64,000 nt of DNA from Thermoanaerobaculia bacterium. GTDB lineage: Bacteria > Acidobacteriota > Thermoanaerobaculia > Multivoradales > Multivoraceae. A program made the position numbers and the translations under genes. The notes beneath the pieces were generated by a model. That model was not told the DNA's origin and searched no databases. It worked only from the letters and a program-made list of their open reading frames with translations. This document shows, piece after piece, positions 11,251 to 62,886 of the stretch. The stretch covers positions 3,296,001 to 3,360,000 of the forward strand of contig OY761158.1 of the NCBI GenBank assembly GCA_963664405.1, in the 5' to 3' direction. Position 1 is the stretch's first letter, and every line of letters begins with the position of its first letter.

Positions 11251-11295
11251 TAAGCAGCGTCGCGAGGGCCGCCGGCGCGCGGAAGCTTCGCGTGG

Positions 11296-12201: not shown

Positions 12202-12415
12202 CTCGTTCTCTCCGGAGTCATCTCATCACCGCGAGCTCAGAAAGAGACCGGTGCTCGGGGAATCGTAACGTCATTACACTTTCGGACCAAGTGTCGGAAG
12301 GAGCCTCTCGCCCTTCCCTGGAGCGATGCTCGACCCCCGAGTCAAGCCCTGCAAGGAGGGCATGCTTTCAACTAGACTCGGTCGTCTCTTAGCTCAGAGG
12401 CGCCAGGGAACCCGA

Positions 12416-13084
12416 ATGAGAAACAAGGCAGCGCTTCATATGAAATGGGTGCGAAGGGTCTGTCCCGTCTGGTCGCTCTTTTTTCGAGCCTTCTTTGGAG
12501 CACGAGTGCGGGCTATGAGAAACCTCCCGAGCTCGGGTGCCTTCATCCTGGCGCCCAACCATCAGAGCTTCTTCGACGGACAGCTCTTGGGATGTCCACT
12601 GGATCGTCCCATCTTCTTCATGGTCTCGGCCCCGTATTTCAAAATCCCTGTCATCGGCTCTTTCTTGAATGCTGTCGGTTGTATTCCCATAGGTGGCGGG
12701 GGAGGGCAGGAGGCTTATCGAGCCGGCCTAGAGGTGCTCGAGGAAGGGTATTGCCTCGCGGTCTTTCCCGAGGGGCACAGGAGTAGAGACGGGAGCTTGC
12801 TCAATCTGCAGTTGGGCGCGGCAAGAATGGCCCACCTCACCGGGACACCGATCGTACCGGTGAGTGTCGTAGGCGCGTTCGAGGCTTGGCCCAGGAACCG
12901 CATGCTGCCACGACCCTTCCGACCCATCACCGTCAAGTACCACCGGCCGATTCCTTGTCCGGTGGTCCCCAAGGACCAACTGAGAGTCGAGAGTCGCAGG
13001 ACCACCGAGAAGCTCGGGCGGGTGTTGCGTCGTCGCCTGGCGGCATGGGAGGTTGTTCGGCGCCGCGTCTCCGGCGGAGGATAG
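12416..13084 (+). CDS. Lysophospholipid acyltransferase (PlsC family)
   Basis: NHQSFFD (HxxxxD) and FPEGHRS motifs; start uncertain. Confidence 0.85.
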   Translation: MRNKAALHMKWVRRVCPVWSLFFRAFFGARVRAMRNLPSSGAFILAPNHQSFFDGQLLGCPLDRPIFFMVSAPYFKIPVIGSFLNAVGCIPIGGGGGQEAYRAGLEVLEEGYCLAVFPEGHRSRDGSLLNLQLGAARMAHLTGTPIVPVSVVGAFEAWPRNRMLPRPFRPITVKYHRPIPCPVVPKDQLRVESRRTTEKLGRVLRRRLAAWEVVRRRVSGGG

Positions 13085-13088
13085 TCCT

Positions 13089-14015
13089 ATGCCAATCTGC
13101 CCCTACATTTACTGCCGGTCGCCGCTCGACGAGGATGGTTCCGACTGCGCCGTGTGCGGCCACCCGCAGAGCGAAGCTGAGCTCATGAGCCCGTCTTTTC
13201 TGGCGCAGGCCGATGTCGAGGGTCTGCCGGATTCGATTCTGGACATGCACCAGATCCTGCCGTCTCATAAGGGCATGCTCGAGGTGCAGCTACTGGCGAT
13301 GCAGAAGTTCCGCATCGAGCGGGCCCTTCTCCAATCTGCGCCAGATCAGGCGCACTCACTCTTCGGTAATGCGAGGCTCCTCGAGCTGGTGGAACAGCGG
13401 CCGGAGACCTTTTGGATCTCTCAATTCATCGACCCGCGGATGCCGAACGCGCTGTCGATCCTCGAGGACGTGGCGGCGAAGGGCGCCAAAGTGGTGAAAC
13501 TGCTGCCACCCGCCGGCTTCAGGCTCGACGACCCGGCTCATGATCCTTTCCTCTCCCGCATGGAGGAGATGGGACTCGTGGCCATGGTCCATACCGGTTT
13601 CATCACCGCTCGGCACAAGGACGAGGAAGCCAAGGCGGGCGCCTTTATGAGCTCAGTTTACGCCAACCCTCTGACCCTCGACATGCCGGCACGCAAGTTC
13701 CCACGCCTGACGATCATTCTCTGCCACCTCGGCGGCGCGATCTGGCACGAGGAGGGAGCGCAGATGGTGACGCAGCACGACAACGTGTGGGGGGATGTGA
13801 GCGGTTTCGGGCTATTCGCTCTTCAGCGATTGCTACAGACTCGAGCCGCCGTAGACTGGAGCAAGGTGTTCTGGGGTAATGATTCTGTTCCCTTCGCCTA
13901 CCCTCTCAATCTGCGGCTGCTTCTTGCCAGCCTGCGGCAGGCTGGGGCAGAGGCTCTGTTACCCCCGCTGCTCTTCGAGAACGGTCGCGATTTCGCAGCT
14001 GCATTTCTCCCATGA
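13089..14015 (+). CDS. Amidohydrolase_2-family protein with N-terminal Cys4 zinc ribbon
   Basis: MVHTG, LCHLGG and VFWGNDSVP motifs; N-terminal CPYIYC...CAVC. Confidence 0.7.
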   Translation: MPICPYIYCRSPLDEDGSDCAVCGHPQSEAELMSPSFLAQADVEGLPDSILDMHQILPSHKGMLEVQLLAMQKFRIERALLQSAPDQAHSLFGNARLLELVEQRPETFWISQFIDPRMPNALSILEDVAAKGAKVVKLLPPAGFRLDDPAHDPFLSRMEEMGLVAMVHTGFITARHKDEEAKAGAFMSSVYANPLTLDMPARKFPRLTIILCHLGGAIWHEEGAQMVTQHDNVWGDVSGFGLFALQRLLQTRAAVDWSKVFWGNDSVPFAYPLNLRLLLASLRQAGAEALLPPLLFENGRDFAAAFLP

Positions 14016-14617
14016 GCTCGCCCGTCAACCGGCTCCCATTTCTCGTCATCAGGAGGCTATTGAAGCTTCTTTTGGCGCTTCCGGCGCGCGCGAAGTGGGG
14101 TCTCGATGTCGATCATGGAGAGCGACTGCCGCGGACTCGGGAACCGCTGATCCTGGCCTGCAATCATGCAGCTCTCTTGGACACGGTCTTTCTGATCTTG
14201 GCGCTGCGACCTCGGTTTACGGTCTGCGGTGCCAAGCCGAGCTACTTCCGGACCACTGCCAGGCGCTTCCTCATGGCGGTCGCTAATATTCTGCGGGTCG
14301 ACGACAAGGAAGTTTTTCTGGCCGATTGCCGTCGCTTGCTCCTCGCCGGAGAGATTGTCCTGATCTACCCGGAGATGGGGCGCAACCCGGAGGGGCTTGG
14401 CGCGTTCCAGACTTGGGCCGCGGAGGTGTCTCTCGACAACGGCGTTCCTCTTTTGCCTTGCTATCTCCACGGCACCACTCGCGGTCATAGCGGCGGCGTC
14501 CGCTTGAGAGTCGGTGACCGGATCCGGCCGCGAGGCACGGCAGGCGAGCTCACGGCTCGACTGCGCGAGGCGATCAGCGCTCTCGCCCAGCCGGCAGGGG
14601 CCGCCGAAACGCCATGA
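14012..14617 (+). CDS. Lysophospholipid acyltransferase family protein
   Basis: NHAALLD and IYPEMGR motifs; ATGA-coupled to the upstream gene. Confidence 0.8.
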   Translation: MSSPVNRLPFLVIRRLLKLLLALPARAKWGLDVDHGERLPRTREPLILACNHAALLDTVFLILALRPRFTVCGAKPSYFRTTARRFLMAVANILRVDDKEVFLADCRRLLLAGEIVLIYPEMGRNPEGLGAFQTWAAEVSLDNGVPLLPCYLHGTTRGHSGGVRLRVGDRIRPRGTAGELTARLREAISALAQPAGAAETP

Positions 14618-15597
14618 TCCTGGTGACCGGCGCCAATGGCTTTCTCGGACCCCACGTGGTCGAGAGTTTGACCGAAGCGTCTCCGGGGAACGGTGTACGC
14701 GCTGTGCTGCGGAACGCTGACGAGCGATTCAGCTCGCGTTTCCCAGATGTCGAGGTCAAGGAGGGAGATCTTCGCGACGAATCGCTCGTGGCCGATGCCG
14801 TGGCGGGAGTGACGGCCGTCGTTCACTTGGCGTCCAAGAACATCGATCGCGACGGTTCGGGTTTCGACGTCAACGTGGAGAGCACCGAGAAATTGTGCCG
14901 CGCGGCGCAGGCCGCGGGAGTGCGACGCCTCATCTACACCAGTTCGGTCGGTGTCTACGGCCACGGGGCCCATCGCGGTGCCGACGAGACGACTCCAGTG
15001 CGACCCGACACGGCTCTCAGCATCTCGAAGGCGGCAGCAGAGGCCATCGTGCTCGAACATCACCGTACGGGCGCCTTCCGTGCCACGGTCCTGCGCCCCC
15101 GATTCGTCTATGGCGCAGGAGACACCTCCCTACTGCCGCGACTGATCGGAGCCGCCCGCAAGTACCCGTTTTTGATCTCCGGCGGCAGGGCTCGCATCTC
15201 GTTGGTGCTCGCCGACGATCTTGCGCAGGTCATCCTGCGCTTCGCCACCGACGAGACCGAAGTCTCGGGCGCCGGAGACCCGGTACTCCACGTCACCTCG
15301 GGCGAGACGCTTTCCTATCGCGAGCTCGTCTCCACTCTCTGCGCGGCGTTCGGCTATCGGTCGCCACGCTTCAGCCTGCCGATCTGGCTGGTATTGGCGC
15401 CGCTTCTTCTACGCGAGAGACTTCTTGGTCAGGACCCCGAGACTGTACGGGGTATCTCCTCCCTGCGCGTTAGAATGATTGCGCAGGACAACGAGTTCTC
15501 CAATCACAAGCTTCTCCAGCGCTTTCCGGATCTGAGCTTCACCTCGTTTGCGGAAGGCTTCGAGAGCTCTCTCGACTATTACCAGCGCTTCGCGTGA
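14614..15597 (+). CDS. NAD-dependent epimerase/dehydratase (extended SDR)
   Basis: TGANGFLG, VHLAS, YTSSVGVYG and LRPRFVYG; the catalytic YxxxK appears as LSISK. Confidence 0.85.
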   Translation: MILVTGANGFLGPHVVESLTEASPGNGVRAVLRNADERFSSRFPDVEVKEGDLRDESLVADAVAGVTAVVHLASKNIDRDGSGFDVNVESTEKLCRAAQAAGVRRLIYTSSVGVYGHGAHRGADETTPVRPDTALSISKAAAEAIVLEHHRTGAFRATVLRPRFVYGAGDTSLLPRLIGAARKYPFLISGGRARISLVLADDLAQVILRFATDETEVSGAGDPVLHVTSGETLSYRELVSTLCAAFGYRSPRFSLPIWLVLAPLLLRERLLGQDPETVRGISSLRVRMIAQDNEFSNHKLLQRFPDLSFTSFAEGFESSLDYYQRFA

Positions 15598-15601
15598 GCG
15601 G

Positions 15602-16252
15602 ATGAAGGTTTCGATCAAGAGCCTTCTCAAGGGGGCTCGGGAAGCACGTGGTCACGTTGCGCTCATCGACGTGTTCACGTCGACCACCCTGATCGCGACC
15701 TTGCTGGACCGGGGTGCGACAGAGGTCGTCCCGGTGCGCTCCGTGCGTGAGGCCATGGCGATCCGGGCCGGCCGTCCCGACACGATTCTGATGGGAGAGA
15801 GATGGGGCAAGAAGATCCCGAGCTTCGATCACAACACTTCCTGCGTACGCGCCAGTACGCTCGACGTCGCCGATCGGCAGGTGGTGGTGTCGACCACGAA
15901 TGGAACCCTGGGAATCCTCAGTGTGGAGAAGGCCGACCGCCTCTTTCTTGGCTGTTTCCGCAACGCAGCGGCGCTGGCCCAGCGATTGGCGGAAGCTGAT
16001 GAAGTGACCCTGGTGCCGATAGGGCTTGCCCACGGGAGGATCAGGGCTATCGAAGACGAGCTCTGTGCCGAGGCGGTGAGACGCTACCTTCTGGGTGAGG
16101 ATGTCGGGTTCGCGGCTCTTGAGCAACGCATTCGTCGAGACCTCTCGAGCCGAGTGAGAAACGTGAGCCGCCGTTCCGATGTCGATTACTGCCTCGAGCT
16201 CAACGCTGTCGATATCGTGCCTGAGCTCCGCGGCAAGATCATCAGAGCCTAG
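15602..16252 (+). CDS. comB: 2-phosphosulfolactate phosphatase (ComB)-family phosphatase
   Basis: LIDVFTSTT, MGER, STTNGT and EDELCA motifs. Confidence 0.8.
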   Translation: MKVSIKSLLKGAREARGHVALIDVFTSTTLIATLLDRGATEVVPVRSVREAMAIRAGRPDTILMGERWGKKIPSFDHNTSCVRASTLDVADRQVVVSTTNGTLGILSVEKADRLFLGCFRNAAALAQRLAEADEVTLVPIGLAHGRIRAIEDELCAEAVRRYLLGEDVGFAALEQRIRRDLSSRVRNVSRRSDVDYCLELNAVDIVPELRGKIIRA

Positions 16253-17807
16253 GAGTCTGCGCGGCAGGAGTGCGGGTACGGTGAAGCTTCGATCGCGCTG
16301 CAGAATGGACGCCGCATTGGGTTTCGGATGGCGGAGAGTGCGTTGAGCAAGCCTGACGAGGCGTCAGGAAGCGCGATGCGGGTCGTATAGTGAGCTCTAA
16401 CTCGGTGGCATGGCCCGGAGCGGCTCATGAAGCCGCTTGGAGGACGTGGAAGCGCTTCAAGTTGACGGCCAGACACACCAGATCCCACTCGTGGCCGACG
16501 TTGTCTTGGCCCCGGAGGCTGAATCGTCGGAAGCCCAAGACCTCTTTGATCCAACCGATCACCGGTTCCACGACCGCCTTGCGCCGTCGGTAGCGTTGCT
16601 TGCCGGCGTCGCTGGCGAGTTTGTTCTGCATGCGGCGAGACGCTGCGAGCCTCTTGGTCACCTCACGCTTCTTTCCCTCTCGACCCAAGGAGATGTGAGC
16701 TTCAATGCCTCGTTTCTCGAGCTCGAGAAACGTCGCCTCGCTGCGATACCCCGCATCCGCCAAGACCTGCTCGGGATCCTCCCCCATCGCCGCCTTCGCC
16801 CGCGACAGCAACGGCATCATCTCGCCCACGTCCGCGGCGTTGTTCGTCAGGCTCGTCGAGACGATCATCTGCGACTCTTCCTCCACCGCCAACTGGCCGT
16901 TGTAGCACTGATCGTAGCCATGGACCGTTTTCATGATCCGACTCTGCGGATCGGTGAAGTTGTCCTGGGCCCGGTCCTCCGGTACACCAAAATCGCGCGC
17001 GAAGGGCCGCCCGCGACGAGGCGGGTCGTCGTCGTCAACCTCCTTACGGCCGCGCTCTCGGTCCTTTTCGGCCTGGCGCGCCTCGAGCCTCTCCTTCGCC
17101 TGCTGGATCTTCGCCAAGCGCTGCTCGCGCCGCTGCAGCTCGGCCGGCAGCTCATCGCCGCGCACCTGCGCACCATGCTCCACATCCTCTGCCGTATCCA
17201 CCGCCTCGGCCTGCGACAGGAGCTCGGCGATCTCCTCTTGCAGACGCTTCTCCTCCTCCAGCATCCGAGCGTAGCTCATCGACTTGCGCTTGCTCGCGTT
17301 GGCCTTGACCTTCGTACCGTCCACCACCAACGTCCCCATACGCAGCACCCCGGCCTCACGAGCGATCTGCACCACCTGCACGAACAGCGCCCGGAATGCC
17401 GCTAAATGAAGCTGACGAAACTCACATATCGTGCGATGCGCCGGGGAGTTGCCCGCCGCCAGATAACGATACGCCACGTCCTCCTCGAGCTTGCGCGCGA
17501 TGCCGCGCGACGAATACGTCCCCGTCCCATACGCATACAACATCACCTTCACCATCATCCGAGGATCGAACGGCTGATTCCGACGACCATCCCCCTCGTA
17601 ACGAGCGTAAAACGACGACAGATCCAGCGCCTCCACCGTCTCGGAGATGAAGTACACCAAGTGGCCCTCCGGCAACCAGTCACGAGGGCTCGGGGCTAGC
17701 AGATACAGCTGATCCGGAGCATACGGACGAAACGACGTTGGCATGCCACAACTCTACTCCGTCTTCGATCTCTTCACTAAACACTCCGTTTCTGCCGCGC
17801 AGACTCC
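16252..17807 (-). mobile_element. IS1182-family insertion sequence
   Basis: TIR ggagtctgcgcggcag / ctgccgcgcagactcc; CTAG (TA) flanks at 16249-16252 and 17807-17810; sits on the comB stop codon. Confidence 0.9.
16425..17744 (-). CDS. IS1182-family DDE transposase
   Basis: LPEGHLVYFI, VDGTKVKANAS, NFTDPQSRIMK, LADAGY and VEPVIGWIK motifs. Confidence 0.92.
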   Translation of the reverse strand: MPTSFRPYAPDQLYLLAPSPRDWLPEGHLVYFISETVEALDLSSFYARYEGDGRRNQPFDPRMMVKVMLYAYGTGTYSSRGIARKLEEDVAYRYLAAGNSPAHRTICEFRQLHLAAFRALFVQVVQIAREAGVLRMGTLVVDGTKVKANASKRKSMSYARMLEEEKRLQEEIAELLSQAEAVDTAEDVEHGAQVRGDELPAELQRREQRLAKIQQAKERLEARQAEKDRERGRKEVDDDDPPRRGRPFARDFGVPEDRAQDNFTDPQSRIMKTVHGYDQCYNGQLAVEEESQMIVSTSLTNNAADVGEMMPLLSRAKAAMGEDPEQVLADAGYRSEATFLELEKRGIEAHISLGREGKKREVTKRLAASRRMQNKLASDAGKQRYRRRKAVVEPVIGWIKEVLGFRRFSLRGQDNVGHEWDLVCLAVNLKRFHVLQAAS

Positions 17808-17829
17808 TAGCCAGAAGAAATGATGAGTA

Positions 17830-18753
17830 TCATTTCCTCTGGCTAGTTGCCTTTGGCGCCGAGGACGGCGCACTCAGTTCTTGCTTCTTATTCGCTTCGG
17901 GCAGCGTCTGCGCCTCGGGCGCCGCTTGTGGGGGTGTCTTTTCTTCGCTGCTCCAGCCCAGGCCGGCTCCGTCGGGAAGGAAAAAGTCGCGCACGTCATG
18001 CTCAGAGATGTGGTCGCTCACCAGGTTGAGGAGCCCCTCGAAAGTGAGATGCACTCCGCGTTTGGCAACCATCCTCTGACCCAATCCGATGAAGCCGCCC
18101 GGCTCGGTGTGGGTGAAGTACTCGACCGCGGTGCAATCTTCGCTCAGGGGAATCATCAGCCAGGAGCCCCGGCTCGACTTGAGCGCCGGCATCTTCTTCG
18201 CCACGTCCGCGATCGGAGGGTTCTCCGTGTCGGCACTGTCGATCTCGTCAGTCCAGGTCAGCTCCCACAGGTTGCCGTCGGATTGTCGATATAGATCCGC
18301 GCTCATCCGGATCCGGCTCAACCACCAGCGACCGATGCCCCATCGTTGGAAGGTCTGGAAGAGAAGGCGCTCACTACCACGGGGGTCCCCACCAATGACT
18401 TCGGAGTGCTTGACCGGTATGTAGTCGCCCTCCAGATCGTGATGATCCTCGTCATTGACCGCTTTCCAGAGCTTCTCTATAGGTAGCTCGACGATGAGGA
18501 CACCAAACCCCTTCAGTCCGGAGCGGCTGACAAAAACCTCGCCGACGCGATCGACGGCTGACTGATAAAGCTCGGTGGGTACAGCGTTTTCGAAGCTCTT
18601 CGTACGTGAAGCCCGCTCCAGCTGGAGGTCGTCGAGTGTTTCGAGAAGCTGATCCGGAGAGGGGCAGGCTGCCATTGTCGGGCTCACCATTGAGCTGAGC
18701 GCTACGAGAACGGCGCCGAGGGTACCGATGCCTCTTATTGACATCACCTCCAC
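17830..18753 (-). CDS. Secreted START/SRPBCC-like lipid-binding protein
   Basis: Signal peptide; GSWLMIPL...TAVEYFTHTEPGG resembles the START-fold C-terminus. Confidence 0.55.
   Translation of the reverse strand: MEVMSIRGIGTLGAVLVALSSMVSPTMAACPSPDQLLETLDDLQLERASRTKSFENAVPTELYQSAVDRVGEVFVSRSGLKGFGVLIVELPIEKLWKAVNDEDHHDLEGDYIPVKHSEVIGGDPRGSERLLFQTFQRWGIGRWWLSRIRMSADLYRQSDGNLWELTWTDEIDSADTENPPIADVAKKMPALKSSRGSWLMIPLSEDCTAVEYFTHTEPGGFIGLGQRMVAKRGVHLTFEGLLNLVSDHISEHDVRDFFLPDGAGLGWSSEEKTPPQAAPEAQTLPEANKKQELSAPSSAPKATSQRK
17854..17871 (-). repeat. REP-like hairpin GCGCCGTCCTCGGCGCCA
   Basis: Identical 18-mer also at 44963-44980 and 56219-56236. Confidence 0.6.
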
Positions 18754-18760
18754 GCCACCT

Positions 18761-20158
18761 TCATTCAGAGGCGACCGCCGGAACCGATCTCTCGGTGGTC
18801 AAGAACGAAAGCGCATCTGACGAAGACACCGGCCGCCCAGGATCGAGGGCCGCATCGTTGACAAGGAAGAATCCGGACGAGGAGAGGGAGTCCAGGCCCC
18901 CATGGGTACCCTCGAGGAGGCCGCCCTTGATCCTGGCGACGAGGTAAGCGGCTTTTCGTCCCCAGGCGTAGCCCGGTTCGATCGAGAACAGAACACTGGC
19001 GGCGTGCTTGACATAGGTTCCGGTGAGACTGTCGATGATGCGCTTGGGTGCGTTGGGATACGGGGCCTCGATGCTGTGGACGAGCCAGTCCTCGCTCTTG
19101 GCGAATCCGTCGTCGTCCAGCGCTCCAGTGGCCCGTAACCGTGACACTGCGGTTGATAGCGCCAGCGGGTCGCCGCCGGTCGGCTCGTAACTGTATCGGG
19201 GGCCGTCAGGAGTTTCTCGCCACCCAAGCCGTGCCGAGGCCTCTCCGGCCAACACGGTCACCTCCTGGCTGCCCGACACAAAGGCCGCCAGCTCCACATT
19301 CGGATGAGCGGCGATGCTCTCTGCGGCATCACGAGCTCGACGATCTTGCACATAGATTGCGCCGAAGTTGACGAGCCCGAAGGTCGGGGCGACCGCATCA
19401 TTCGGGCCCTCGAGACGGGAACGTAGGTTGAAGCCCGACCGGCGGAGCTGGCGCTTCAAGCCCTTGGCCCGCCGCACCTTCTCGTCGGTGTTGCCATGGT
19501 CGGACAACAGAACCAGGCGCAGGCATCGGCTCGTCTGCTGTCGGTACTGCTCCTGCAGGGCCTCGAGTCGCGGGTCGAGCTCGAGTAGAAAGCGGAGAGT
19601 GCTCTGGTAACCGTGGAGGTGAGTCAGACTGTCAGTGCGCGCGAGATAGACGACAAGGAAGTCCTGGTCGCTTGCCAGAACCGTTTCCTCCATCTGGGCT
19701 AGCTCGGCAAAGGCTAAACGGCGCGGGGTCAAATATCCCATGGCGTGCTTCCAGGAGCCTTGCCGCTCTTTCTCCACGACATCCCTCCAGGCGTAGGCGC
19801 GCTTCTTGGCCCCGAAGGGCAACTTGCCCACCATCCTGTTGCGATCGCGGTCGAAGTGCGGGATCTCGTAGCCGGCGACGGGACCGACATCCAGGGGCTG
19901 GAGAATGGCGGAGAAGCTCACATTGGTCATCGATGGAAAAGTGGCGACAAGTGGCCTCTGCGTCTGCCAGCCGTCGAAAGCGCCTTGCTCACGGGCCAGT
20001 CCAATAACGGAGTAGGGCACCCCATCCAGAGCCAGAACGACTGTCGTCTGATCCTCACTCGAGGAGTCGCAAGCCACCGCGGCATGGCCGGGCTGCGTCA
20101 CGCTCCAGATCACCACGATTCCGCAGGCTACGGAGCTCGGTGAGAGGCCGAGCCTCAC
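18761..20158 (-). CDS. Alkaline phosphatase/nucleotide pyrophosphatase superfamily protein
   Basis: LALDGVP, FPSMTN, DSLTH, LLSDHGN and GTHGGLD metal and nucleophile motifs; GTG overlaps the PKS stop. Confidence 0.8.
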   Translation of the reverse strand: MRLGLSPSSVACGIVVIWSVTQPGHAAVACDSSSEDQTTVVLALDGVPYSVIGLAREQGAFDGWQTQRPLVATFPSMTNVSFSAILQPLDVGPVAGYEIPHFDRDRNRMVGKLPFGAKKRAYAWRDVVEKERQGSWKHAMGYLTPRRLAFAELAQMEETVLASDQDFLVVYLARTDSLTHLHGYQSTLRFLLELDPRLEALQEQYRQQTSRCLRLVLLSDHGNTDEKVRRAKGLKRQLRRSGFNLRSRLEGPNDAVAPTFGLVNFGAIYVQDRRARDAAESIAAHPNVELAAFVSGSQEVTVLAGEASARLGWRETPDGPRYSYEPTGGDPLALSTAVSRLRATGALDDDGFAKSEDWLVHSIEAPYPNAPKRIIDSLTGTYVKHAASVLFSIEPGYAWGRKAAYLVARIKGGLLEGTHGGLDSLSSSGFFLVNDAALDPGRPVSSSDALSFLTTERSVPAVASE

Positions 20159-23100
20159 ACCTCTCCCCACCGTGCACGCTGGTACTCCGGTGTATCCGCG
20201 GCGGCACCGTACAGCTCGATTCCTCCCAGCTTCAGATCGCCGCTGCGTAACTCGACATGGGAACCGCTGAGGCGCATCGTCGAGGTATCGATACTCCGGA
20301 TCGTCGGCGACCAAAGTGTCACGGGGTCGTCTGCGCCGATCACCTCAGCGAGGCGGATGTGGACCGCCAGCAGAATGAAGTGAGAATCGAACGATTCGTG
20401 CTCCAGTGCGTGAGCACGGGCGGTGAGGAATTGTCGAGTCCACTCGACCAGCTGGGTCGCTGAAACATGATCCACATCACTATCGCGAAGGGCGTGCTCC
20501 GGAGTCGGTAGGAGGGCCGTTGCAGCGACGCCTTCGTCCGACACCACCGGCTCCGAGATCAATACGTTCTCGCTCCGCTGCTTGTGAACCAAGCGGCGGC
20601 TTGCCGCTCGCTGCGGCCCCGGCATCCGCTCGTGGCCGCCGACGAGATCGACAGGGCGCATAAGGCCTTCGAAGGTTGCACACCGCTGACTCCCGCCGAT
20701 GGAGCCGCGCACACGCCACCGCTCGGATTCGCGGGTCAAGCCCTCTGAAGTGATCTTGAGGGGCGTATCCAGATCTCCCCAGCTCTCGAAACGGATTCTG
20801 AGCTCCTCCAGTTGCAGCCGGCGGCGTAGCGACTCGCCGCCGAGAGCCATAGCGAGCCACTCGCTGAGCTGCTGAACGGCCTCGACAAAGAGCAAGCCTG
20901 GTACGTGATCGTAGGGATGATCGAAATAGAAAGGGTGCGTCTGGTCGACAACGATTCGCGCTTCGAGCTTTCCGTCGTTGTTGACGATCTGTTCGAGCAC
21001 CCGATTGCGCGGGTCCCTACGTAATTGCAGCACTCCTGTGGGCGCTACCAGGATTTCGATGGGCGCCCCTTCCTGCCCGGGGCCTACAGTTGACTCGTTG
21101 GCGGCCAGACCCACCGCAGTCGCGCCTTCTGCACTCAGATGCGGTCTTAGCGTCTCGACGATGTCGCCAACCGTGCTCACCTCCGCCCAATCCAGCTCCT
21201 GCTCCTCCAGCGCCGGAACGTCCTCCCCCAGAGCGAGGACCAGCTCGACCAACCCGATCGAAGAGAGGCCGAGACCGCGAACTTGGGTCTCGAGCGAGAG
21301 CTCCGAGGCCAGGTGGCCGGTGATCGCTGCGAGTCGCGCCACTACGATGGCGTGCGCCGGATCTGAGGGCGTAGGGAGTGCTTCTGGGGCCGTCGCCGCG
21401 GATATGGGCTCGACGAGGGCTCGCGGCTTGGTGGCCTCACCTTTGAGCCAGTACGGCCGGCGCTGGAACGGGTACCTTGGCAGGGTGCTGACACGACGCG
21501 TAGGCGCGCCGAAGAACTGACTCCAATCGGGTGTGGCACCAAGCTCGAAAAGACCTCCGAGCGTGCTGACCATTCGTCTCGAATCGGACGTCCCTGGTCG
21601 CAGACTGGCAAATCCCTTGGTGTCGGGCCCCAGGCACCCTCGGGCCAGAGAGAGCAGGACCGGCGTGCTGCCCACCTCGAGCAGGGCGTCGTAACCCTCC
21701 TCGGCCAGGGCAGCCATACATTCGGCAAAGCGCACTGTAGAGCGGGCTTGGGTGAGCCAGTACGAGGGAGACGAGAGCTCCTCCGTCGCTCGCTTACCTG
21801 TGACGTTGGAGAAGAAAGGCACCGACGGGCTAGTGCAGGCGAGGTCTCGAATGCCACGCTCGAGCTTCGGTAGCACAGGGTCGAGAAGCGCTGAGTGGAA
21901 GGCTCGCCTCACCGGCAGCCGCTTACCGGAAACACCTATCTCTCGCAGGCGCTCGTCCAGCCGATCGAGAGATGTGCTGCGGCCGGTGAACACCGTCTGC
22001 AGCGGCGAATTGACGGCTGCCACCTCCACCTCGGGGGCCACCTCTTCGAGCAGAGCGAGAGCCCTCTCTTCGCTCATCTCGACCGCCAACATCGACCCCT
22101 CGGCGGAGCTTTCCTGCATCACTCGTCCGCGCAGCGCTACGAGTCTGAGCGCGGCGTCCAGGTCGAGGGCGCCGGCGACGCAGGCAGCAACGATCTCGCC
22201 GACGCTGTGACCAAGAACCGCCGCCGGGGTGATACCCCACGCCTTCCACAGCTGAGCCAGCCCATACTCGAGTGCGAAGATCGCCGGTTGGGAGTAAACG
22301 GTCTCGTCGAGAGTCGCCGAATCCGTGCCGAACATGACCTCCAACAGAGGGCGATCGAGCTCGCGGTCGAGAACCTCGGCGCAGCGTTGTACGCTTTGAC
22401 GAAAGAGCGGCTCACGGTCGAATAGCTCCGACCCCATGCCGGTGTATTGAGAGCCCTGACCGGTGAAGAGGAAGGCAATCCTGAGCCCACTTCGGGATGC
22501 CGGCCGTGCCTCAGCGTTCCACTCCGAGAGCGCCCGCTGCACTTCTTCGGTCGACTCCGCAACGATCGCGGCGCGGTAAGGAAGGGCTTCCCGTTGCGTG
22601 GCGGCAGCGTTGCAGAGGGCGCCTAGCTCGCTTTCGTCCGTTTGTTCCAAGAGGCTGGCGTATCTCGTGCACAGTTGCCGCAATGCGGTCGGGGTCTCGG
22701 CTGCAAGCGCCAGCAGCGGCTGAAGCGCAGTGGCCGGTGGGCCGGTGGCCGGTTCCGCGGCGACCGATTCGAGGACGATGTGGGCGTTGGTTCCGCCGAT
22801 TCCGAACGAGCTCACGCCCGCCACCTGTGATTCGCCGTTGTTCGTTTCCCAGGGCTCAAAGCGGGTCTGTACCGCCAGGTTGAGTCGCTCGAAGGGGATG
22901 TAGGGGTTGGCGTTGTGGAAGCCGAGGCTGGGAACGAAGGAGCGGTGGTGCATCATCAAACAGCACTTGACCACGCCGGTGACTCCCGCGGCCGACTCGA
23001 GATGGCCGACGTTGGTCTTCGAAGAACCGACACGGCAGGGCGCCTCGGGCGGGCGGCCTCGGCCCACCGTCCGACCCAACGCCTTCGCTTCGATCGGGTC

Positions 23101-24036
23101 ACCGAGGAGAGTCCCGGTGCCGTGTGCCTCGACGTAGTCAACGCGGCTAGGTTCGACGCCGGCCCGCTGGTAGGCCTGGCCGAGAACCATTTCCTGTGCC
23201 CGGCCGTTCGGTGCCATCAATCCGTTACTGGGTCCGTCCTGGTTGACGGCGCTTCCGCGAATCACCGCGTAGATCCGGTCGCCATCGCACTGGGCCGCCG
23301 CCAGCGGGCGTAGGACCAGCATCGCTGCGCCCTCGCCGCGCACATAGCCGTTGGCGCTGGCGTCAAAAGTCTTGCAGCGACCGTCTGGCGACAAGACCCC
23401 TGCCTCGGCGAGGCTCGCCGAGCTCAGGCTGTCGAGAAGCAGGCTCACGCCGCCGGCGAGCGCGAGATCGGTATCGCCGCGCGCGAGCCCCTCGCATGCG
23501 AGGTGGATGGCTACCAGCGATGACGAGCAGGCGGTGTCCACCGCAAGGCTCGGACCGTGGACACCGAGAAAATAGGACAAGCGATTGGCCGCGATGCTGC
23601 ACAGAGCTCCGGTGAGCTGTACTGCGTCCCTCTGGCCGGGTGACGCCGCGCTCTGCAAGGCGTAGCCGCTGCCCGAGATGCCGATGTAGACCCCCGCGGC
23701 GCTCCGCCGGAGGGCGGAAGGCACGATGCCGCTGTCCTCCAGAGCGTGCCATGCGAGCTCCAGAAGGAGTCGCTGTTGGGGGTCCATGTAATCTGCCTCG
23801 CGGGGTGAGATGCGAAAGAACGGTGCGTCGAACTCTGCGATGTCGTTCAACAGCGCCGCGTGCCCCAGATCCCTCACTCGTTCCCGGTCCCAGTCACCGA
23901 GGGCCGACACGTCGGTGACACCATGTCGTCCTTCCCTCAACAGATCCCAGAAGGCGTCGAGGTCAGGGGCGCCCGGCAATCGGCACGCCATACCGACGAT
24001 GGCTACACTCTCGTCAGGCTGTGCTTTCGAGCTCAT
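20155..24036 (-). CDS. Type I PKS: KS-AT-ACP plus C-terminal AfsA-like double hotdog domain
   Basis: KS DTACSSS/HGTGT/GHLE; AT GHSVG and RAFH; ACP GLSS; C-terminal FDHPYDHVPGLLFVEAVQQ and LVHKQRSENVL...LVEWTRQ. Confidence 0.9.
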   Translation of the reverse strand: MSSKAQPDESVAIVGMACRLPGAPDLDAFWDLLREGRHGVTDVSALGDWDRERVRDLGHAALLNDIAEFDAPFFRISPREADYMDPQQRLLLELAWHALEDSGIVPSALRRSAAGVYIGISGSGYALQSAASPGQRDAVQLTGALCSIAANRLSYFLGVHGPSLAVDTACSSSLVAIHLACEGLARGDTDLALAGGVSLLLDSLSSASLAEAGVLSPDGRCKTFDASANGYVRGEGAAMLVLRPLAAAQCDGDRIYAVIRGSAVNQDGPSNGLMAPNGRAQEMVLGQAYQRAGVEPSRVDYVEAHGTGTLLGDPIEAKALGRTVGRGRPPEAPCRVGSSKTNVGHLESAAGVTGVVKCCLMMHHRSFVPSLGFHNANPYIPFERLNLAVQTRFEPWETNNGESQVAGVSSFGIGGTNAHIVLESVAAEPATGPPATALQPLLALAAETPTALRQLCTRYASLLEQTDESELGALCNAAATQREALPYRAAIVAESTEEVQRALSEWNAEARPASRSGLRIAFLFTGQGSQYTGMGSELFDREPLFRQSVQRCAEVLDRELDRPLLEVMFGTDSATLDETVYSQPAIFALEYGLAQLWKAWGITPAAVLGHSVGEIVAACVAGALDLDAALRLVALRGRVMQESSAEGSMLAVEMSEERALALLEEVAPEVEVAAVNSPLQTVFTGRSTSLDRLDERLREIGVSGKRLPVRRAFHSALLDPVLPKLERGIRDLACTSPSVPFFSNVTGKRATEELSSPSYWLTQARSTVRFAECMAALAEEGYDALLEVGSTPVLLSLARGCLGPDTKGFASLRPGTSDSRRMVSTLGGLFELGATPDWSQFFGAPTRRVSTLPRYPFQRRPYWLKGEATKPRALVEPISAATAPEALPTPSDPAHAIVVARLAAITGHLASELSLETQVRGLGLSSIGLVELVLALGEDVPALEEQELDWAEVSTVGDIVETLRPHLSAEGATAVGLAANESTVGPGQEGAPIEILVAPTGVLQLRRDPRNRVLEQIVNNDGKLEARIVVDQTHPFYFDHPYDHVPGLLFVEAVQQLSEWLAMALGGESLRRRLQLEELRIRFESWGDLDTPLKITSEGLTRESERWRVRGSIGGSQRCATFEGLMRPVDLVGGHERMPGPQRAASRRLVHKQRSENVLISEPVVSDEGVAATALLPTPEHALRDSDVDHVSATQLVEWTRQFLTARAHALEHESFDSHFILLAVHIRLAEVIGADDPVTLWSPTIRSIDTSTMRLSGSHVELRSGDLKLGGIELYGAAADTPEYQRARWGEV

Positions 24037-24274
24037 CCTTGAGGAATCGGGCCAGCTCGTCGATGCTGGGATAGTCGAAGAACATCGTGGGCTCCAGCTC
24101 GACCTCCAGCCAGTCCTCGAGATCCGCTGTTATGGCGATCGCAGCGAGCGAGTCCAAGCCGTAGTCGGCGAGAGGGCGATCGGCATCCAACGGCGTTTCG
24201 ACGCCGAGCCTCTCGCGTAGTCTTGCGAGCAGCCAGGCCCGGATACTGTCCGTGGTTGGCGCCGGCGAGCTCAC
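24014..24274 (-). CDS. Acyl carrier protein
   Basis: YGLDSL phosphopantetheine motif and FDYPSIDELA. Confidence 0.92.
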   Translation of the reverse strand: MSSPAPTTDSIRAWLLARLRERLGVETPLDADRPLADYGLDSLAAIAITADLEDWLEVELEPTMFFDYPSIDELARFLKDELESTA

Positions 24275-26133
24275 GTGACCTCGCCGAGCTCTCCGGATTG
24301 AAAACGTTGCCTGGCAATGTAGCGTTGAGGCTTGCCGCTCGGGGTCTTCGTCAAGGCGCCGGCGTCCAGAGCCACCAGAGTGTGGACGTTCAGGCCATGC
24401 TGGGCGAGGACGGCATGGCGGATCTGGGAGCTCACGCTCGGCCGCTCTTCCGGAGGCACATCGCGCATCTCGACACCGATGACCAGCCGCTCCCCGTCAT
24501 CTGCGTCCACCGAGAAGGCGACGATTCGGTCCGCCCGCAGGGGGGCGTGGGTACTTGCGACTGTCTGCTCGATGTCTTGAGGGTGATGGTTGGCACCGCT
24601 GAAGACCATTAGGTCCTTGTAGCGGCCGGTGACGAAGACCTCCTGGTCGTAGATGACTCCGGTATCGCCGGTGCGCAGAAAAAACGCTCCGGGGATCTGC
24701 CCAAGCCGCGCCCCGAAGGTTGCTGCCGAGCTCTCTGCGTGCCCGAAGTACCCCTCTGCTACATGAGAGCTGGCTACCCAGATCTCGCCTACGCCCCCCT
24801 CCGGGCAGGTTTCGAGCGATTCGGGATCCACGATCCGGAGAATCGCATCACCGACTGGAGAGCCGCAGCTAACCAAGGGGACCGCCCCTGCGGATCCCTC
24901 GTTGACCGCCACCGCCTTGCCGTGGCGCAGCCCCTCGCGGTCGAAACACCGAGAGCGAAGGCCTCGGCGCCCTGTGACGATGAGCGTCGACTCGGCCAGC
25001 CCGTAGCAGGGGAAGATTGCCTCGGGGTTCAGACCACAAGGTTCGAAGGCATCGATAAATCGGCGCACTGTGTCGGCTCGGACTGGCTCTCCGCCCACGA
25101 CAACGATTCGCAGGCTGCTGAGATCGAGATTGCGGCGTGAGTCTTCCGTGGTTTTGGCGACGCAGAGCTCGAGGGCGAAGTTAGGGACCGCGGTGAGCGT
25201 TGCCTGGTTTTCAGAAATGGCCCTGAGCCATGTCAATGGGCGCTTGAGAAAGGTCATCGGCGAGAGTTGGACCTGGGACGAGCCGCTCAGGATCTGGAAA
25301 AGCATGCAACCGATCAAGCCCATGTCGTGCGTTGCGGGCAGCCAACTGACGCAGATCTCGCGCTGCGGTCGGAGCTCGCCCAGGTCGTTTATTGCGGTAG
25401 CGTTGCTAGTCAAATGCTTCTGGGCAACGGCAACGCCCTTGGGGTCCGATGTCGAGCCGGATGTGTATTGGAGCAGGCTCAAGGCATCGGGCTCCCAGAC
25501 TGGTTGCTGCCAGGCTTCGGCCAGGCTGTCGTCGATCTCGTCGACTGCGATCCAACGTGCTACCGCCAGCGCTGGAACTTGCTCAGTCATATCGGTGGCA
25601 TGGTCGGCAAGCTCGGAGGTGGTCAGCAGTGTCGACGCGTCGGCATCTTTGGCGATGAGGGCAAAGCGTTGCAGGGCGCCGAGCACACGCTTCTGGGCCC
25701 GTCGTGCCGATGTGCGACGGCCGAAGCGCATCCCGGCAGGCGGCTGGACAGGTACTGCCACCATGGCAGCGTACTGGCAACCCATGAAGGCGGCGAGGAA
25801 CTCTATGCCCGGCTTGAACAGTAGGACGATACGGGCACCGGGCGACTCCTCCCGCTGTAGACGGGCCGCGATGGCGCGGGCGCGCTGATCCAGATCGCTG
25901 AACGTGTAGCTGTCACGGACCTCGAGACTGTCGGTGAGAAAGGTCACCGCAACTCGATCCCCGCACTCCGCGGCATACCGCCGAAGAGCGAACGGCAGCA
26001 GATCCTGACCGTCTTCGCGGTGTGGTAGCGGTTGGCTCTTAGGCTTAGACTCCGTCAGCCCTTCGCGTCCCCTCCCGGCGGCGCCGGGTCCGTGGCTAGT
26101 GTTTCGAGGCGTGGCGAATCCTAGCAGGATCAA
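24271..26133 (-). CDS. Fatty acyl-AMP ligase (FAAL)
   Basis: QYTSGSTSDPKGV, WLPATHDMGLIG, YGLAESTL with FAAL insertion, LRTGD and KTPSGK; start uncertain. Confidence 0.9.
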   Translation of the reverse strand: MILLGFATPRNTSHGPGAAGRGREGLTESKPKSQPLPHREDGQDLLPFALRRYAAECGDRVAVTFLTDSLEVRDSYTFSDLDQRARAIAARLQREESPGARIVLLFKPGIEFLAAFMGCQYAAMVAVPVQPPAGMRFGRRTSARRAQKRVLGALQRFALIAKDADASTLLTTSELADHATDMTEQVPALAVARWIAVDEIDDSLAEAWQQPVWEPDALSLLQYTSGSTSDPKGVAVAQKHLTSNATAINDLGELRPQREICVSWLPATHDMGLIGCMLFQILSGSSQVQLSPMTFLKRPLTWLRAISENQATLTAVPNFALELCVAKTTEDSRRNLDLSSLRIVVVGGEPVRADTVRRFIDAFEPCGLNPEAIFPCYGLAESTLIVTGRRGLRSRCFDREGLRHGKAVAVNEGSAGAVPLVSCGSPVGDAILRIVDPESLETCPEGGVGEIWVASSHVAEGYFGHAESSAATFGARLGQIPGAFFLRTGDTGVIYDQEVFVTGRYKDLMVFSGANHHPQDIEQTVASTHAPLRADRIVAFSVDADDGERLVIGVEMRDVPPEERPSVSSQIRHAVLAQHGLNVHTLVALDAGALTKTPSGKPQRYIARQRFQSGELGEVT

Positions 26134-26157
26134 AACCGGTTGCCCAGCGTCGGCCTA

Positions 26158-26316
26158 GACCAGCGTTTCCAAAGTTCGTGTACATAGCTCGAGGTCATTC
26201 TGTTCGCTGGCCAGGCGCGCCGACGCAGGCATATTGGGCAATATGTCGAGGAGGCGAAACGCCGTCAGCGGACAGAAGGGGCCGAGATATGTGCGCGAAC
26301 TTTGGAAACGCTGGTC
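26158..26316 (+). mobile_element. 159-bp MITE, end type B
   Basis: TIR gaccagcgtttccaaagttcg / cgaactttggaaacgctggtc with TA flanks. Confidence 0.92.
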
Positions 26317-26574
26317 TAGGGCCTCTGAGCACAAGAACCGCCAGTGTCGTTGCAGGTCGTTTTGCCATCTCTGCCCTCTCCTCTTCGGGCTATAGGCTGC
26401 CGATGCCACTACACTTCAACATTCGGAGCTTCTCTCTATCGACTGCGGTTTCGCACTTTACCGTTGTCAGATATTGGGGTGGGGTTCAGTTGTTATTAGC
26501 TATATGACAATATATAGAGTCGGCTGTTTTTCTCACGCTGCGGGAAGCAAGGTTGCGAAAGTGAAGGAGAGCTC

Positions 26575-29945: not shown

Positions 29946-30272
29946 ACCGACCTAGGGCTCCCCTTCTCCCGTTTCTTCAACCCCGCCTGCCTTCGCGGGC
30001 GGTTGGCACCTTCCGCTACAGAAGGCGCCATCGCCGCCAAGGTTTTGAAACCTGACCGACACGGCCCTCCTAAGTGTTGATTCCCATAAGGTTGTTCAGT
30101 TCGAGCCTGGAGTTAGGTGGTCGTCCGCCAAGAGCTGAATGGGCTCGATGTTTGTTGTAGAAGTGGAGATATCTGGGTAAGAGATCGGAGCGCTCGCGCG
30201 AGGAGTGGAAGGTGAAGGCGTAGGCCCACTCTCGTTGGAGCGTTTGGATGAATCTCTCGGCTTTCCCGTTGG

Positions 30273-30563
30273 GCTCAATGGTCGAATGCACCCGATACAG
30301 ATTGTGAGCAACGACGTTTTCGGGTAACCCATCCGTTCCACCCGCTGTTGGGGCGTGAGTACGAGCTGGCTCACTATCGCCAGTGCTGGGGCGAGGACCG
30401 GGTCTTCTACCTGGATGAATGCGAGGAGCTACGCTCCCTTCCAGCGCGTTGGACGAGTGCGGTGGCCGAGGACCCCGTGGTTGTCCTCTCCGCAGGCAGA
30501 TCGATGTACCGCTTGGCCGACCTGCTCGAGCTCGCCAAGCTGACCCGGGAGAGCGAGCGATGA
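30273..30563 (+). CDS. DUF5372 (Y4bD/Y4pK-like) protein; 5' end lies at the other end of the element (GTG 33607)
   Basis: RVTHPFHPL...WGEDRV...SLPARWT motif; frame open from the element end but no start codon before HPFHP. Confidence 0.7.
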   Translation, partial: AQWSNAPDTDCEQRRFRVTHPFHPLLGREYELAHYRQCWGEDRVFYLDECEELRSLPARWTSAVAEDPVVVLSAGRSMYRLADLLELAKLTRESER

Positions 30564-30597
30564 AGAGCTGCGCGAGGACGGTTGAGGGGCACCGTGC

Positions 30598-30759
30598 GTA
30601 AAGGAGATTATGCCGTGAATGTAATCACAATTATGTCGGGAAGAGTGCCAGAGTGTGACCAGGAGTGTAGAGATAGGCCAATTTAATGCACGATCTATCG
30701 GTACTCTCTTGGTGGACACCCCTTGACAGAGGATCCATGAAAGGCATAATTAGAATTAC
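30598..30759 (+). promoter_or_regulatory. Sigma70-like promoter with three operator-like repeats
   Basis: TTGACA (30723)-16 nt-CATAAT (30745); GTAA-N5-ATTATGYC at 30598, 30621 and inverted at 30743-30759. Confidence 0.65.
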
Positions 30760-30775
30760 ATTCCATGAGGAGACC

Positions 30776-31243
30776 ATGCCGCGACGCAGACCCGACCCGA
30801 AAGCCGAGGCCCTCCGTCAACGAGGGTGCCTTCATCCCCAGCCGGAGAAGGTCTCGGACGATTTGTTCACCTCGAGCGAGTTCTTCGACCCTCGAGACCT
30901 CGTGCAGGTCAAGTACGAGATGCTGCGCCGTGTCCGGGTGGACAGACACACGGTGAGCCGGAGCGCGGCAAGCTTCGGGTTGTCGCGCCCATCCTTCTAC
31001 CACGCCCAGGTGGTTTACGAAGAAGGCGGCCTACCCGCGTTGCTGCCAAGAAAGCCGGGGCCGCGCCGCGCCCACAAGCTATCCGAGGAGGTCGTCGAGG
31101 CCCTGCACGACAGGCTGGAGGGGGAGCCGGACGCAGATGCAACCGCCCTGGTCGAGTGGGTGCAGAAGCGCTTTGGCATCTCGATCCATCCGCGCAGCAT
31201 TGAGCGAGCCCTGGCTCGCCAGGAAAAAAAACGCCGGCCATGA
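30776..31243 (+). CDS. Helix-turn-helix protein of the recombinase element
   Basis: FFDPRDLVQVKYEMLR, FGLSRPSFY and KPGPRRAHKL; AGGAG RBS. Confidence 0.8.
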   Translation: MPRRRPDPKAEALRQRGCLHPQPEKVSDDLFTSSEFFDPRDLVQVKYEMLRRVRVDRHTVSRSAASFGLSRPSFYHAQVVYEEGGLPALLPRKPGPRRAHKLSEEVVEALHDRLEGEPDADATALVEWVQKRFGISIHPRSIERALARQEKKRRP

Positions 31244-31527
31244 GCGCGACACGCCAGCAGAACGCTCCGGCCCATGTCGCTCGCTACGAGGAGCTCCGAG
31301 GACATGCGGCGAAGCGGCAGCTCCTATCGGTTCGGTTCGGCTTGGCCGTTCTCCTGCGACAAGGGCTGGCCGCTTGGGTTGAACAGGGGTCCAAGATGCC
31401 CGCGCCGACCCCGGCACCGTCCGCCGAGATAGCCAGGCCGTCCGCACTGCCTCACGATACGAGCGCGGATCTGATCAACGTGCTGGCCGCCATGGCTCTC
31501 AGCCATCTAGAGGAGAACCACGCATGA
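31240..31527 (+). CDS. Hypothetical accessory protein of the recombinase element
   Basis: ATGA overlaps on both sides; RYEELR...GLAVLLRQGLAAW. Confidence 0.7.
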   Translation: MSATRQQNAPAHVARYEELRGHAAKRQLLSVRFGLAVLLRQGLAAWVEQGSKMPAPTPAPSAEIARPSALPHDTSADLINVLAAMALSHLEENHA

Positions 31528-53293: not shown

Positions 53294-53775
53294 TTAGAGC
53301 GGAGCAGATTCTAGAAGAAGCAGACTCCAGAGGCAAGCTCCCATTTGGCACCAGGGTCTGGTGGAAGTAGTAGGGACGAACCATGATCAGTCGCGTTCCT
53401 TTCGCACACCTCGGATTTGGCCTCGGATCTCCCCACTCGGGAAGCCGATGGTGTGAACGTTGACGTACGTAGAACGGGACTTCATCGCGCGCAGGAGCTT
53501 TCCGAGGTCGCCGCCTCCCAGGCCCTGTGCCGGAACGCCGAGAACGTCCGCAGCGACGATCATCCCTGAGATCTCACCTCCCGGCGCGGCTGGGCAGGCG
53601 GGCGCAAGGTCTCCGCCGCACAGAAACGCGGCCACGCCGCCGTTGGCGCCGGCCTGGCCTAGGTGAATGTGCGCCTGAAGCACATCGCTACCCAGGTGCG
53701 ACAGCCTCAGGACGTACTCGAAGGCGCCTCCGTCAGAGACAACCCTCCCTTCAAACTTCCCGCGAGCCCCGCTAA

Positions 53776-62713: not shown

Positions 62714-62727
62714 TCAAGGAGCACCTA

Positions 62728-62886
62728 GACCAGCGTTTCCAAAGTTCGCGCACATATCTCGGCCCCTTCTGTCCGCTGACGGCGTTTCGCCTCCTCGACA
62801 TATTGCCCAATATGCCTGCGTCGGCGCGCCTGGCCAGCGAACAGAATGAACTCGAGCTATGTACACGAACTTTGGAAACGCTGGTC
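62728..62886 (-). mobile_element. 159-bp MITE, end type B
   Basis: Reverse-complement copy of 26158-26316; TA flanks; begins inside the tsaD TAG stop. Confidence 0.92.

Follow-up and report, generated by a model that had tools for sequence, protein, structure and literature searches.

What would an assembly line produce if it is primed with a fatty acid, extends it once and ends in a release domain whose two halves stand in reverse order? We met this arrangement in a stretch of 64,000 nucleotides from a Thermoanaerobaculia bacterium (assembly GCA_963664405.1, contig OY761158.1, positions 3,296,001 to 3,360,000; hereafter the window), where genes for FAAL (a fatty acyl-AMP ligase), for an ACP (acyl carrier protein) and for a polyketide synthase (PKS) with a C-terminal AfsA-like domain follow one another. 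From sequence comparison and analogy with characterised enzymes, we consider that the locus probably encodes a FAAL-primed minimal lipid assembly line with release of the phosphorylated butenolide synthase (PBS) type, whose product would be tailored to an O-acylated butyrolactone lipid. We are quite confident, taking the steps jointly, of loading by FAAL, a single extension and release with dihydroxyacetone phosphate (DHAP) as a butenolide phosphate, and much less sure of the order and outcome of reduction, O-acylation, dephosphorylation and carriage.

The last 311 residues of the PKS (P0002) are matched in two stretches by the AfsA family PF03756 (107.9 bits, E 5e-31, cut-off 24), and an AlphaFold model built from an 82-sequence alignment (pLDDT 90.8) is a double hotdog, in agreement with the two AfsA-type repeats that the initial annotation had read at this end of the protein. 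Along the polypeptide, FDHPYDHVPG (20925-20896) and EAVQQ (20883) precede VHKQ (20589), EWTRQ (20445) and YQRAR (20184). In the supplement of PMC8209734 the VH motif comes first and DHxxG last in S. griseus AfsA, ScbA, MmfL and Spt9, so that the initial annotation gave the canonical order correctly. Spt9, suggested to us as another case of reversal by the Spt1-like neighbours of some related loci, was ruled out as VH-first by the same supplement. With two ScbA/BarX proteins from plasmid records as references for the order, residues 5-115 of P0002 aligned to the C-terminal half (196-299) of the ScbA-family protein L004, and residues 161-289 to its N-terminal half (21-158). On profiles of the canonical halves, the first half of P0002 scored 105 on the C-half and 11 on the N-half, and its second half 32 and 54, respectively; in a control with 1000 shuffles, 101.8 and 50.8 bits stood against maxima of 5.6 and 4.8. 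Residues 23-130 of P0002 also match profile positions 178-276 of 290 in the ScbA/BarX equivalog NF041195. Aligned separately, each repeat thus matches the opposite AfsA/ScbA half, the DHVPG half does come before the VHK/EWTRQ/YQRAR half, and by these comparisons the halves stand in the opposite order to those of AfsA, ScbA, MmfL and Spt9.

The same searches bear on whether the domain could be a FabZ- or PKS-type dehydratase or a hotdog thioesterase, in which case a free 3-oxo acid would give a methyl ketone carrying no C3 unit. The first repeat holds a FabZ-like H...PG...E..Q pattern (E 0.29), FabA matches P0002 at E 0.0044, and TesB thioesterases and PKS DH domains are among the top fold matches of the model. 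The FabA match nevertheless reaches only 17.1 bits (cut-off 23) against 107.9 for AfsA, no PS-DH match appeared at E<=0.1, the HxxxGxxxxP motif is absent, and the module has no KR that would make a hydroxy substrate. Moreover, the double-hotdog matches from the PDB, mostly thioesterases and dehydratases, are generic (7-17% identity, Z 12-20), with no AfsA-named entry among those listed to compete, and the relatives P0062 and P0127 carry a thioesterase (TE) besides their AfsA-like domain. We regard this reading as very improbable, and the closer kinship to PKS DH or FabZ that would have spoken against AfsA was not found. Sequence searches of the PDB with P0002, a ScbA-family protein and the 82-sequence profile gave no significant match, and no AfsA-named structure is among the search results; this does not prove that there is none, but a structure would probably be new. 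The acceptor, too, could differ. AvrD-dependent syringolide formation uses xylulose, and among the clusters listed by ESM Atlas are some of AvrD (0.93) and some that mix AfsA with AvrD (0.94-0.95), which would suit a ketose other than DHAP; against it, Pfam gave no AvrD match at E<=0.1, AfsA makes up 74-85% of the top atlas clusters, and the phosphatase genes of the locus suit a phosphorylated acceptor. We find such an acceptor hardly credible.

Residue conservation was compared across relatives of the same layout (DH-first; sampled as described below). In P0002 numbering, the first halves keep His58 in 190/190, Asp61 in 189/190 and His62 in 190/190 sequences, and the second halves keep Glu216 in 185/189 and Gln220 in 188/189, while Glu70 is kept in 120/190. 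The key residues of ScbA are reportedly E78, R81, E240, R243 and R174 (Hsiao 2007, cited second-hand). The equivalents of E78, R81 and E240 in P0002 are E216, R219 and E70, and an Arg follows the Tyr of the YxRxR motif, whose mapping to the ScbA linker residue R174 is approximate. In the gladiofungin synthase GlaE, the guide sequence and new SacII site given in PMC7756420 place E10080, by eye, in the C-terminal ExxRQ motif, that is, at Glu216; the E10080A mutant reportedly produces gladiofungin like the wild type, and both of its GlaE cassettes have, by eye, Ala at the Glu70 position. An in vivo null of this kind is compatible with a slowed enzyme and does not exclude one. The initial annotation had stressed a conserved Glu in each repeat; both are present, yet given the 120/190 for Glu70 and the silent E10080A they are weak evidence. 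Near-invariance of His58, Asp61 and His62 together with the silent Glu-to-Ala change points to DH-first catalytic residues that differ from those assigned in ScbA. The active site is probably composite: the first repeat would contribute its His/Asp/His loop and the second its VH, ExxRQ and terminal Arg elements, and the half order need not alter the chemistry.

The three core genes lie on the minus strand with overlapping stops and starts (the GTG start of the ACP gene overlaps the FAAL stop at the junction), and their features are collected in the table. The best NCBIfam models for the first product are fatty acyl-AMP ligases (292-392 bits, none above its cut-off; PRK05850 reaches 392, cut-off 775), compared with 138 for TIGR01733 and 128 for PRK06187; PRK07768, named a CoA ligase, falls within that range at 305 bits. 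The best PDB matches include FadD32, FadD23 and FadD28, and by these profiles the protein is nearer to FAAL than to the models for acyl-CoA ligases or for NRPS adenylation. In the PKS, Pfam gave no KR, DH, ER or TE match at E<=0.1. The RAFHS motif of its AT we take to be malonyl-selective by the xAFH rule. The internal ACP falls short of the PF00550 cut-off, which the ACPs of the relatives P0007 and P0008 pass (27.2 and 21.8 bits), and its variant LGLSSI motif recurs in P0006, P0007, P0009 and P0232. Hence the reading as FAAL, ACP and a single KS-AT-ACP module with neither reductive nor TE domain is upheld by Pfam and by intact motifs. An AfsA-like domain behind the last ACP, with no TE and an expected 3-keto substrate, is the PBS layout. 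In P0010, P0014, L008, L033, L066 and L074 the whole FAAL-ACP-KS-AT-ACP-PBS series is one polypeptide, which ties the FAAL to the PKS, and the PBS-terminated lipid synthase is probably functional.

Table. Predicted features of the locus, in window coordinates; percentages are identities to the products of related loci L007 and L008.
Feature	Position	Strand	Evidence and remarks
FAAL	24271..26133	-	PF00501 + PF23024; PDB FAAL matches E<1e-60; start uncertain (TTG 26133)
Stand-alone ACP	24014..24274	-	PF00550 65 bits, E 6.4e-18; YGLDSL
PKS gene, 1293 aa	20155-24036	-	
KS domain	22765..24012	-	PF00109, PF02801; DTACSS/HGTGT/KTNVGHLE, catalytic Cys/His/His motifs intact
AT domain	21649..22473	-	PF00698 E 6.6e-63; GHSVG active site, RAFHS motif
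Internal ACP	21151..21345	-	PF00550 18.3 bits, under 20.8 cut-off; variant motif LGLSSI
First hotdog repeat	20647..21039	-	FDHPYDHVPG...EAVQQ; matches second half of AfsA/ScbA
Second hotdog repeat	20158..20619	-	VHKQ...EWTRQ...YQRAR; matches first half of AfsA/ScbA
Phosphodiesterase, alkaline-phosphatase superfamily, NPP-like	18761..20158	-	PF01663 E 1.5e-10; signal-peptide-like N-terminus by eye
START/SRPBCC-like protein	17830..18753	-	Signal-peptide-like N-terminus by eye; 46% in L007
IS1182 transposase, not biosynthetic	16425..17744	-	NF033551 364 bits, cut-off 270
ComB-like (2-phosphosulfolactate-type) phosphatase	15602..16252	+	PF04029 E 9.5e-41; 59% in L007
Extended SDR (short-chain dehydrogenase/reductase)	14614..15597	+	PF01370; 58% to L007, 43% to L008
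PlsC-like acyltransferase 2	14012..14617	+	PF01553; HX4D intact; 57% to L007, 42% to L008
Amidohydrolase-2 TIM barrel	13053..14015	+	PF04909; 65% to L007, 47% to L008
PlsC-like acyltransferase 1	12326..13084	+	PF01553 E 1e-25; HX4D + PEG intact; 48% in L007

The cluster extends well beyond the 20155..26133 flagged at the outset, which left out the tailoring genes at 12326-20158; it spans 12326-26133. The phosphodiesterase start overlaps the PKS stop, and such a gene also follows the PKS in L007 (48%) and in the fused ORF P0007; the protein had no PDB sequence match. The START-like protein had no Pfam or NCBIfam match, and its ESM Atlas neighbours (0.92-0.95), some with PF03364 or PF01852, offer a lead only; it is a probable lipid carrier. 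The ComB-like protein is a candidate for removal of phosphate, and the SDR, with a weak OleD-type match (98 bits, cut-off 580), for reduction of the butenolide or the ketone. The amidohydrolase belongs to a superfamily of lactonases and decarboxylases and its profile matched uncharacterised proteins only; a model built from three sequences (pLDDT 79, against 51-57 for the other four) resembles lactonases, decarboxylases and dihydroorotases alike in a fold search, pointing to no specific function.

In the pathway that we favour, FAAL would load a fatty acid onto the free ACP and the KS-AT would add one malonyl unit, the chain staying a 3-oxoacyl-ACP because there is no KR. The AfsA-like double hotdog would transfer it to DHAP, and ring closure would give a long-chain 2-acyl-butenolide phosphate, as with the gladiostatin PBS in vitro. 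The SDR would reduce ring or ketone, one or both PlsC enzymes would O-acylate the freed hydroxyl, ComB and/or the exported phosphodiesterase would strip the phosphate, and the START-like protein would carry the product. In A-factor synthesis, a reductase and dephosphorylation are needed after AfsA. The long-chain butenolide formed by DHAP release, as first proposed, is well supported by inference; the conserved tailoring genes make an acylated lipid more likely than the plain A-factor-like signal that had been envisaged. A reduced butyrolactone phosphate, with one tail, a free hydroxyl and a phosphate, resembles lyso-phosphatidic acid, so the PlsC enzymes could add tails, and if the amidohydrolase opened the ring and the 3-oxo acid decarboxylated, the first chain would be C-C-bonded to a glycerol-like backbone. 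A new class of membrane-type lipid with several tails, whose backbone is a butyrolactone or is glycerol-like and carbon-linked, seems to us doubtful; in that case, chemistry of the AfsA type, familiar from nanomolar hormones, would provide Acidobacteriota and Myxococcota with structural or surface lipids. The two PlsC-family genes with intact HX4D also lend themselves to an open-chain scheme, in which the domain acylates DHAP or glycerol phosphate, the ring stays open, the SDR first reduces the ester and the PlsC pair gives a 3-hydroxy- or acyloxy-acyl phosphatidic-acid-like lipid. The weak match of PlsC1 to OlsA, an acyltransferase for lyso-ornithine lipid (E 1.4e-4, far below the cut-off), the SDR-OleD match and the lipid-carrier-like neighbour would fit it; however, the characterised family members yield a cyclised butenolide phosphate in vitro, and PlsC genes are absent from 78/80 loci with a related domain (many of these loci being short), and we consider an open chain rather unlikely.

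The butyrolactone pathway gains from the comparison of loci, since the search for homologous clusters proposed at the start turned up matching blocks in Thermoanaerobaculia and Myxococcota genomes. A GTDB scan gave 241 pattern matches, 183 of them confirmed, from which 80 loci in at least 6 phyla were kept, many of them short. L007 (Thermoanaerobaculia) has all seven tailoring genes beside its PKS, whose start is cut by the contig end, at 46-65% identity. In L008 (Myxococcota), the genes directly behind a FAAL-to-PBS fusion are amidohydrolase, PlsC and SDR, and next comes a HAD phosphatase in place of the ComB-like one; the amidohydrolase-PlsC-SDR block that follows the PKS there faces it in L007 and in the window. 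Seven of the 80 loci are of the cis-AT type: L008, L033, L066 and L074, with FAAL in the same ORF, and L007, L013 and L040, cut by contig ends. As L013, L033, L040, L066 and L074 instead have an ICMT-type methyltransferase, an SDR and an Spt1-like enzyme as tailoring genes, one core appears to feed several tailoring sets. Phosphate-handling neighbours are frequent (HAD phosphatase in 33/80 loci, Spt1-like phosphoenolpyruvate (PEP)-utilising enzyme in 31/80).

Other groupings emerged from the same scan. In 31/80 loci, among them L010, L013, L033, L040-L043, L046 and L049, a DH-first domain is paired with an Spt1-like enzyme and an ICMT-type methyltransferase, and 22 also have UbiA-like genes; these loci may, as a guess, make cyclophostin-type methyl phosphotriesters, and our search of the Creative Commons content of PubMed Central and bioRxiv found no characterised example. 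L009 and about 32 similar loci, mostly from Pseudomonas, combine an SDR, an AMP ligase, a HAD phosphatase, an FAD monooxygenase, a tandem ACP and then a KS-containing protein that ends in a DH-first domain. In 9/80 loci, mostly from Alphaproteobacteria, a stand-alone DH-first gene lies directly behind trpA/trpF-like genes (loci of this type are L050, L062-L064, L067, L070, L078, L080 and L082, and also L001).

Several observations weigh against the pathway that we favour. The NF041195 equivalog scores 88 bits on P0002 where 200 are required, ScbA-family proteins are no more than 36-37% identical to it over the better half, and the position of ScbA R243 is Gln73 in P0002 and mostly Leu or Val across the DH-first set. 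The half order of the gladiostatin protein GdsF is inferred from GlaE, and its in vitro result is transferred by analogy to this domain. The full tailoring set occurs in 1/80 loci (L007) and the three-gene block in 2/80. Lastly, this copy may not be expressed, given the insertions at the locus: IS1182 sits between the two converging gene blocks, where the START-like and ComB genes abut in L007, and repeats have also inserted. A MITE-like element of about 170 bp with 38-nt terminal inverted repeats (26154-26325) lies directly upstream of FAAL and may affect its promoter; further copies are found at 62719-62888 and 977-1141 (98% and 94-95% alike), with a diverged one at 246-412.

How common is the reversed order? 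A library search gave 761 representatives at E<=0.001, with 150 of them among the matches listed. An earlier classification by regular expression left 53/153 unassigned, and profiles were used instead. Of 253 relatives, 190 were DH-first and 37 VH-first, 15 had a single hotdog, 10 were overlapping and 1 stayed unassigned; the 10 overlapping ones were reassigned by hand, five to VH-first and five to single-hotdog. The swapped canonical half was preferred by 190/190 first and 147/190 second halves of the DH-first set. Many other proteins therefore share the reversal with this locus, although the sample is biased and, because it was gathered with DH-first queries, 190/253 is not a natural frequency. 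DH-first domains stand alone, follow KS-containing proteins of about 1100-1260 aa with no detected AT, end FAAL-to-PBS fusions (P0010, P0014) or end an AT-less giant PKS (P0147), as seen in a domain scan of 31 of the longer matches. In P0062 and P0127, a FAAL-PKS has its TE before the AfsA-like domain, and L033, L066 and L074 are likewise arranged, judging by length. Three layouts thus exist in the AfsA family: a single hotdog, VH-first and DH-first. We found no remark on the DH-first layout of a PKS release domain in the same literature search; none of the 20 papers listed, out of 32 matches, contains "circular permut", and PMC7756420 and PMC8209734 lack "permut" in their main texts.

The initial annotation called the domain circularly permuted. 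The swapped half order stands, and a permutation origin is only mildly favoured by sequence. Hotdog enzymes are usually dimers with shared active sites, and both orders could go back to a homodimeric ancestor with one hotdog, duplicated separately for each order with opposite symmetric sites kept, a tentative proposal to which we give somewhat less than even chances. It draws on 20 single-hotdog AfsA-like proteins, stand-alone and at PKS ends, that carry both motif sets, and on a single-hotdog profile whose match to the second repeat (E 6e-27) is as good as that of the canonical first half (2e-24). We also built a tree of 76 halves, taken from 16 proteins of the DH-first and 16 of the VH-first order and from 12 singles, all hand-picked. 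Against separate duplication, the free tree groups like halves across both orders (SH-aLRT 93 and 88, neither starred), and the preference of the DH-first halves for the swapped canonical halves, in the proportions given above, runs the same way. Yet a constraint placing the DH-first halves in one clade was not rejected by the approximately unbiased (AU) test (p-AU 0.146), and with the motif columns dropped (112 columns left, simpler model) p-AU rose to 0.52 with a slightly higher constrained likelihood, so that separate duplication is allowed. Single-hotdog examples (L003, L006, P0215-P0229 and P0246-P0249) are candidates for the ancestral homodimer.

Elsewhere in the window, a 2014-bp element with 34-35-nt terminal inverted repeats and transposase-like ORFs occurs at 9242-11255 and 53771-55784 in opposite orientation (99%). 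Another element, bounded by 40-nt inverted repeats (30066-34475), holds two ORFs labelled by eye, one recombinase-like and of 697 aa (31524-33617), the other transposase-like and broken (33692-34408). Between 26575 and 27526 lies a gene for a post-PEP-CTERM-1 domain protein, and behind it a short metalloprotease-like ORF that is probably truncated.

Finally, we compared the locus with known systems. It shares with Streptomyces AfsA, ScbA and MmfL the double PF03756 match, the E78/R81/E240 equivalents, the YxRxR Arg and reductase and phosphatase partners; those enzymes, in contrast, are stand-alone and have the opposite half order, whereas this domain is PKS-fused, has Gln at R243 and stays below the NF041195 cut-off. 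The 15 window proteins scanned (11.3-28.5 kb) include no receptor-type regulator. In the salinipostin pathway AfsA chemistry likewise feeds a lipidated butyrolactone, with Spt9 in canonical order (PMC8209734, supplement). The Spt1-like and UbiA-like genes of the related loci recall that cluster, and among the same 15 proteins there was no Spt1 PEP-utilising, Spt6 kinase or Spt7 UbiA-type gene. A similar logic, an acyl chain capped by a glycolytic C3 unit to give a lactone, underlies the 3-acyltetronates RK-682 and agglomerin and nostovalerolactone, whose acyl chain is FAAL-loaded, as proposed here; these pathways use glyceryl-ACP with FkbH- and FabH-like enzymes, of which the 15 proteins include none. 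PKS lines ending in AfsA are already in print: Niehs 2020 describes orphan lines in Gloeobacter, Paenibacillus and Ruminiclostridium, and KS-AfsA has been noted in Pseudomonas Ps664; Fig. 4G and S3B of Niehs may show a similar orphan line.

The closest model is the known chain-release enzyme of gladiofungin and gladiostatin, as the gladiofungin domain shares the reversed order. The editing cassettes in Table S6 of PMC7756420, which span most of the GlaE AfsA domain and were compared by eye and not by an alignment tool, read in one frame LRRDPRN, FFFDHPLDHVSG, NKH..ANVLL and an ExxRQ-type motif near the C-terminus, paralleled in the window by LRRDPRN, YFDHPYDHVPG, HKQRSENVLI and EWTRQ. No B. 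gladioli record came up when plasmids were searched with a relative of the trans-AT type. As published, deletion of the AfsA domain abolishes gladiofungin in Burkholderia gladioli, and the GdsF ACP-PBS of the matching gladiostatin cluster condenses 3-ketothioesters with DHAP in vitro. In the gladiofungin/gladiostatin system, as here, an AfsA-like domain, with DHxxG first and an ExxRQ-type motif last by eye in GlaE, replaces the TE after the last ACP, and a phosphatase and an oxidoreductase lie nearby. PBS release and the reversed layout thus appear to be already embodied in a characterised enzyme, which belongs to a trans-AT PKS that has many modules and starts from glutarimide, whereas the line described here has one cis-AT module and is FAAL-primed. 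We found no description of this form with its tailoring set in our search of the literature, and the PlsC, amidohydrolase, phosphodiesterase and START-like genes set the locus apart. What is new is therefore the predicted lipid product and its tailoring genes and not the half order of the release domain, and the locus offers a small reconstitutable line of three core proteins for a long-chain butenolide or butyrolactone lipid in little-studied phyla.

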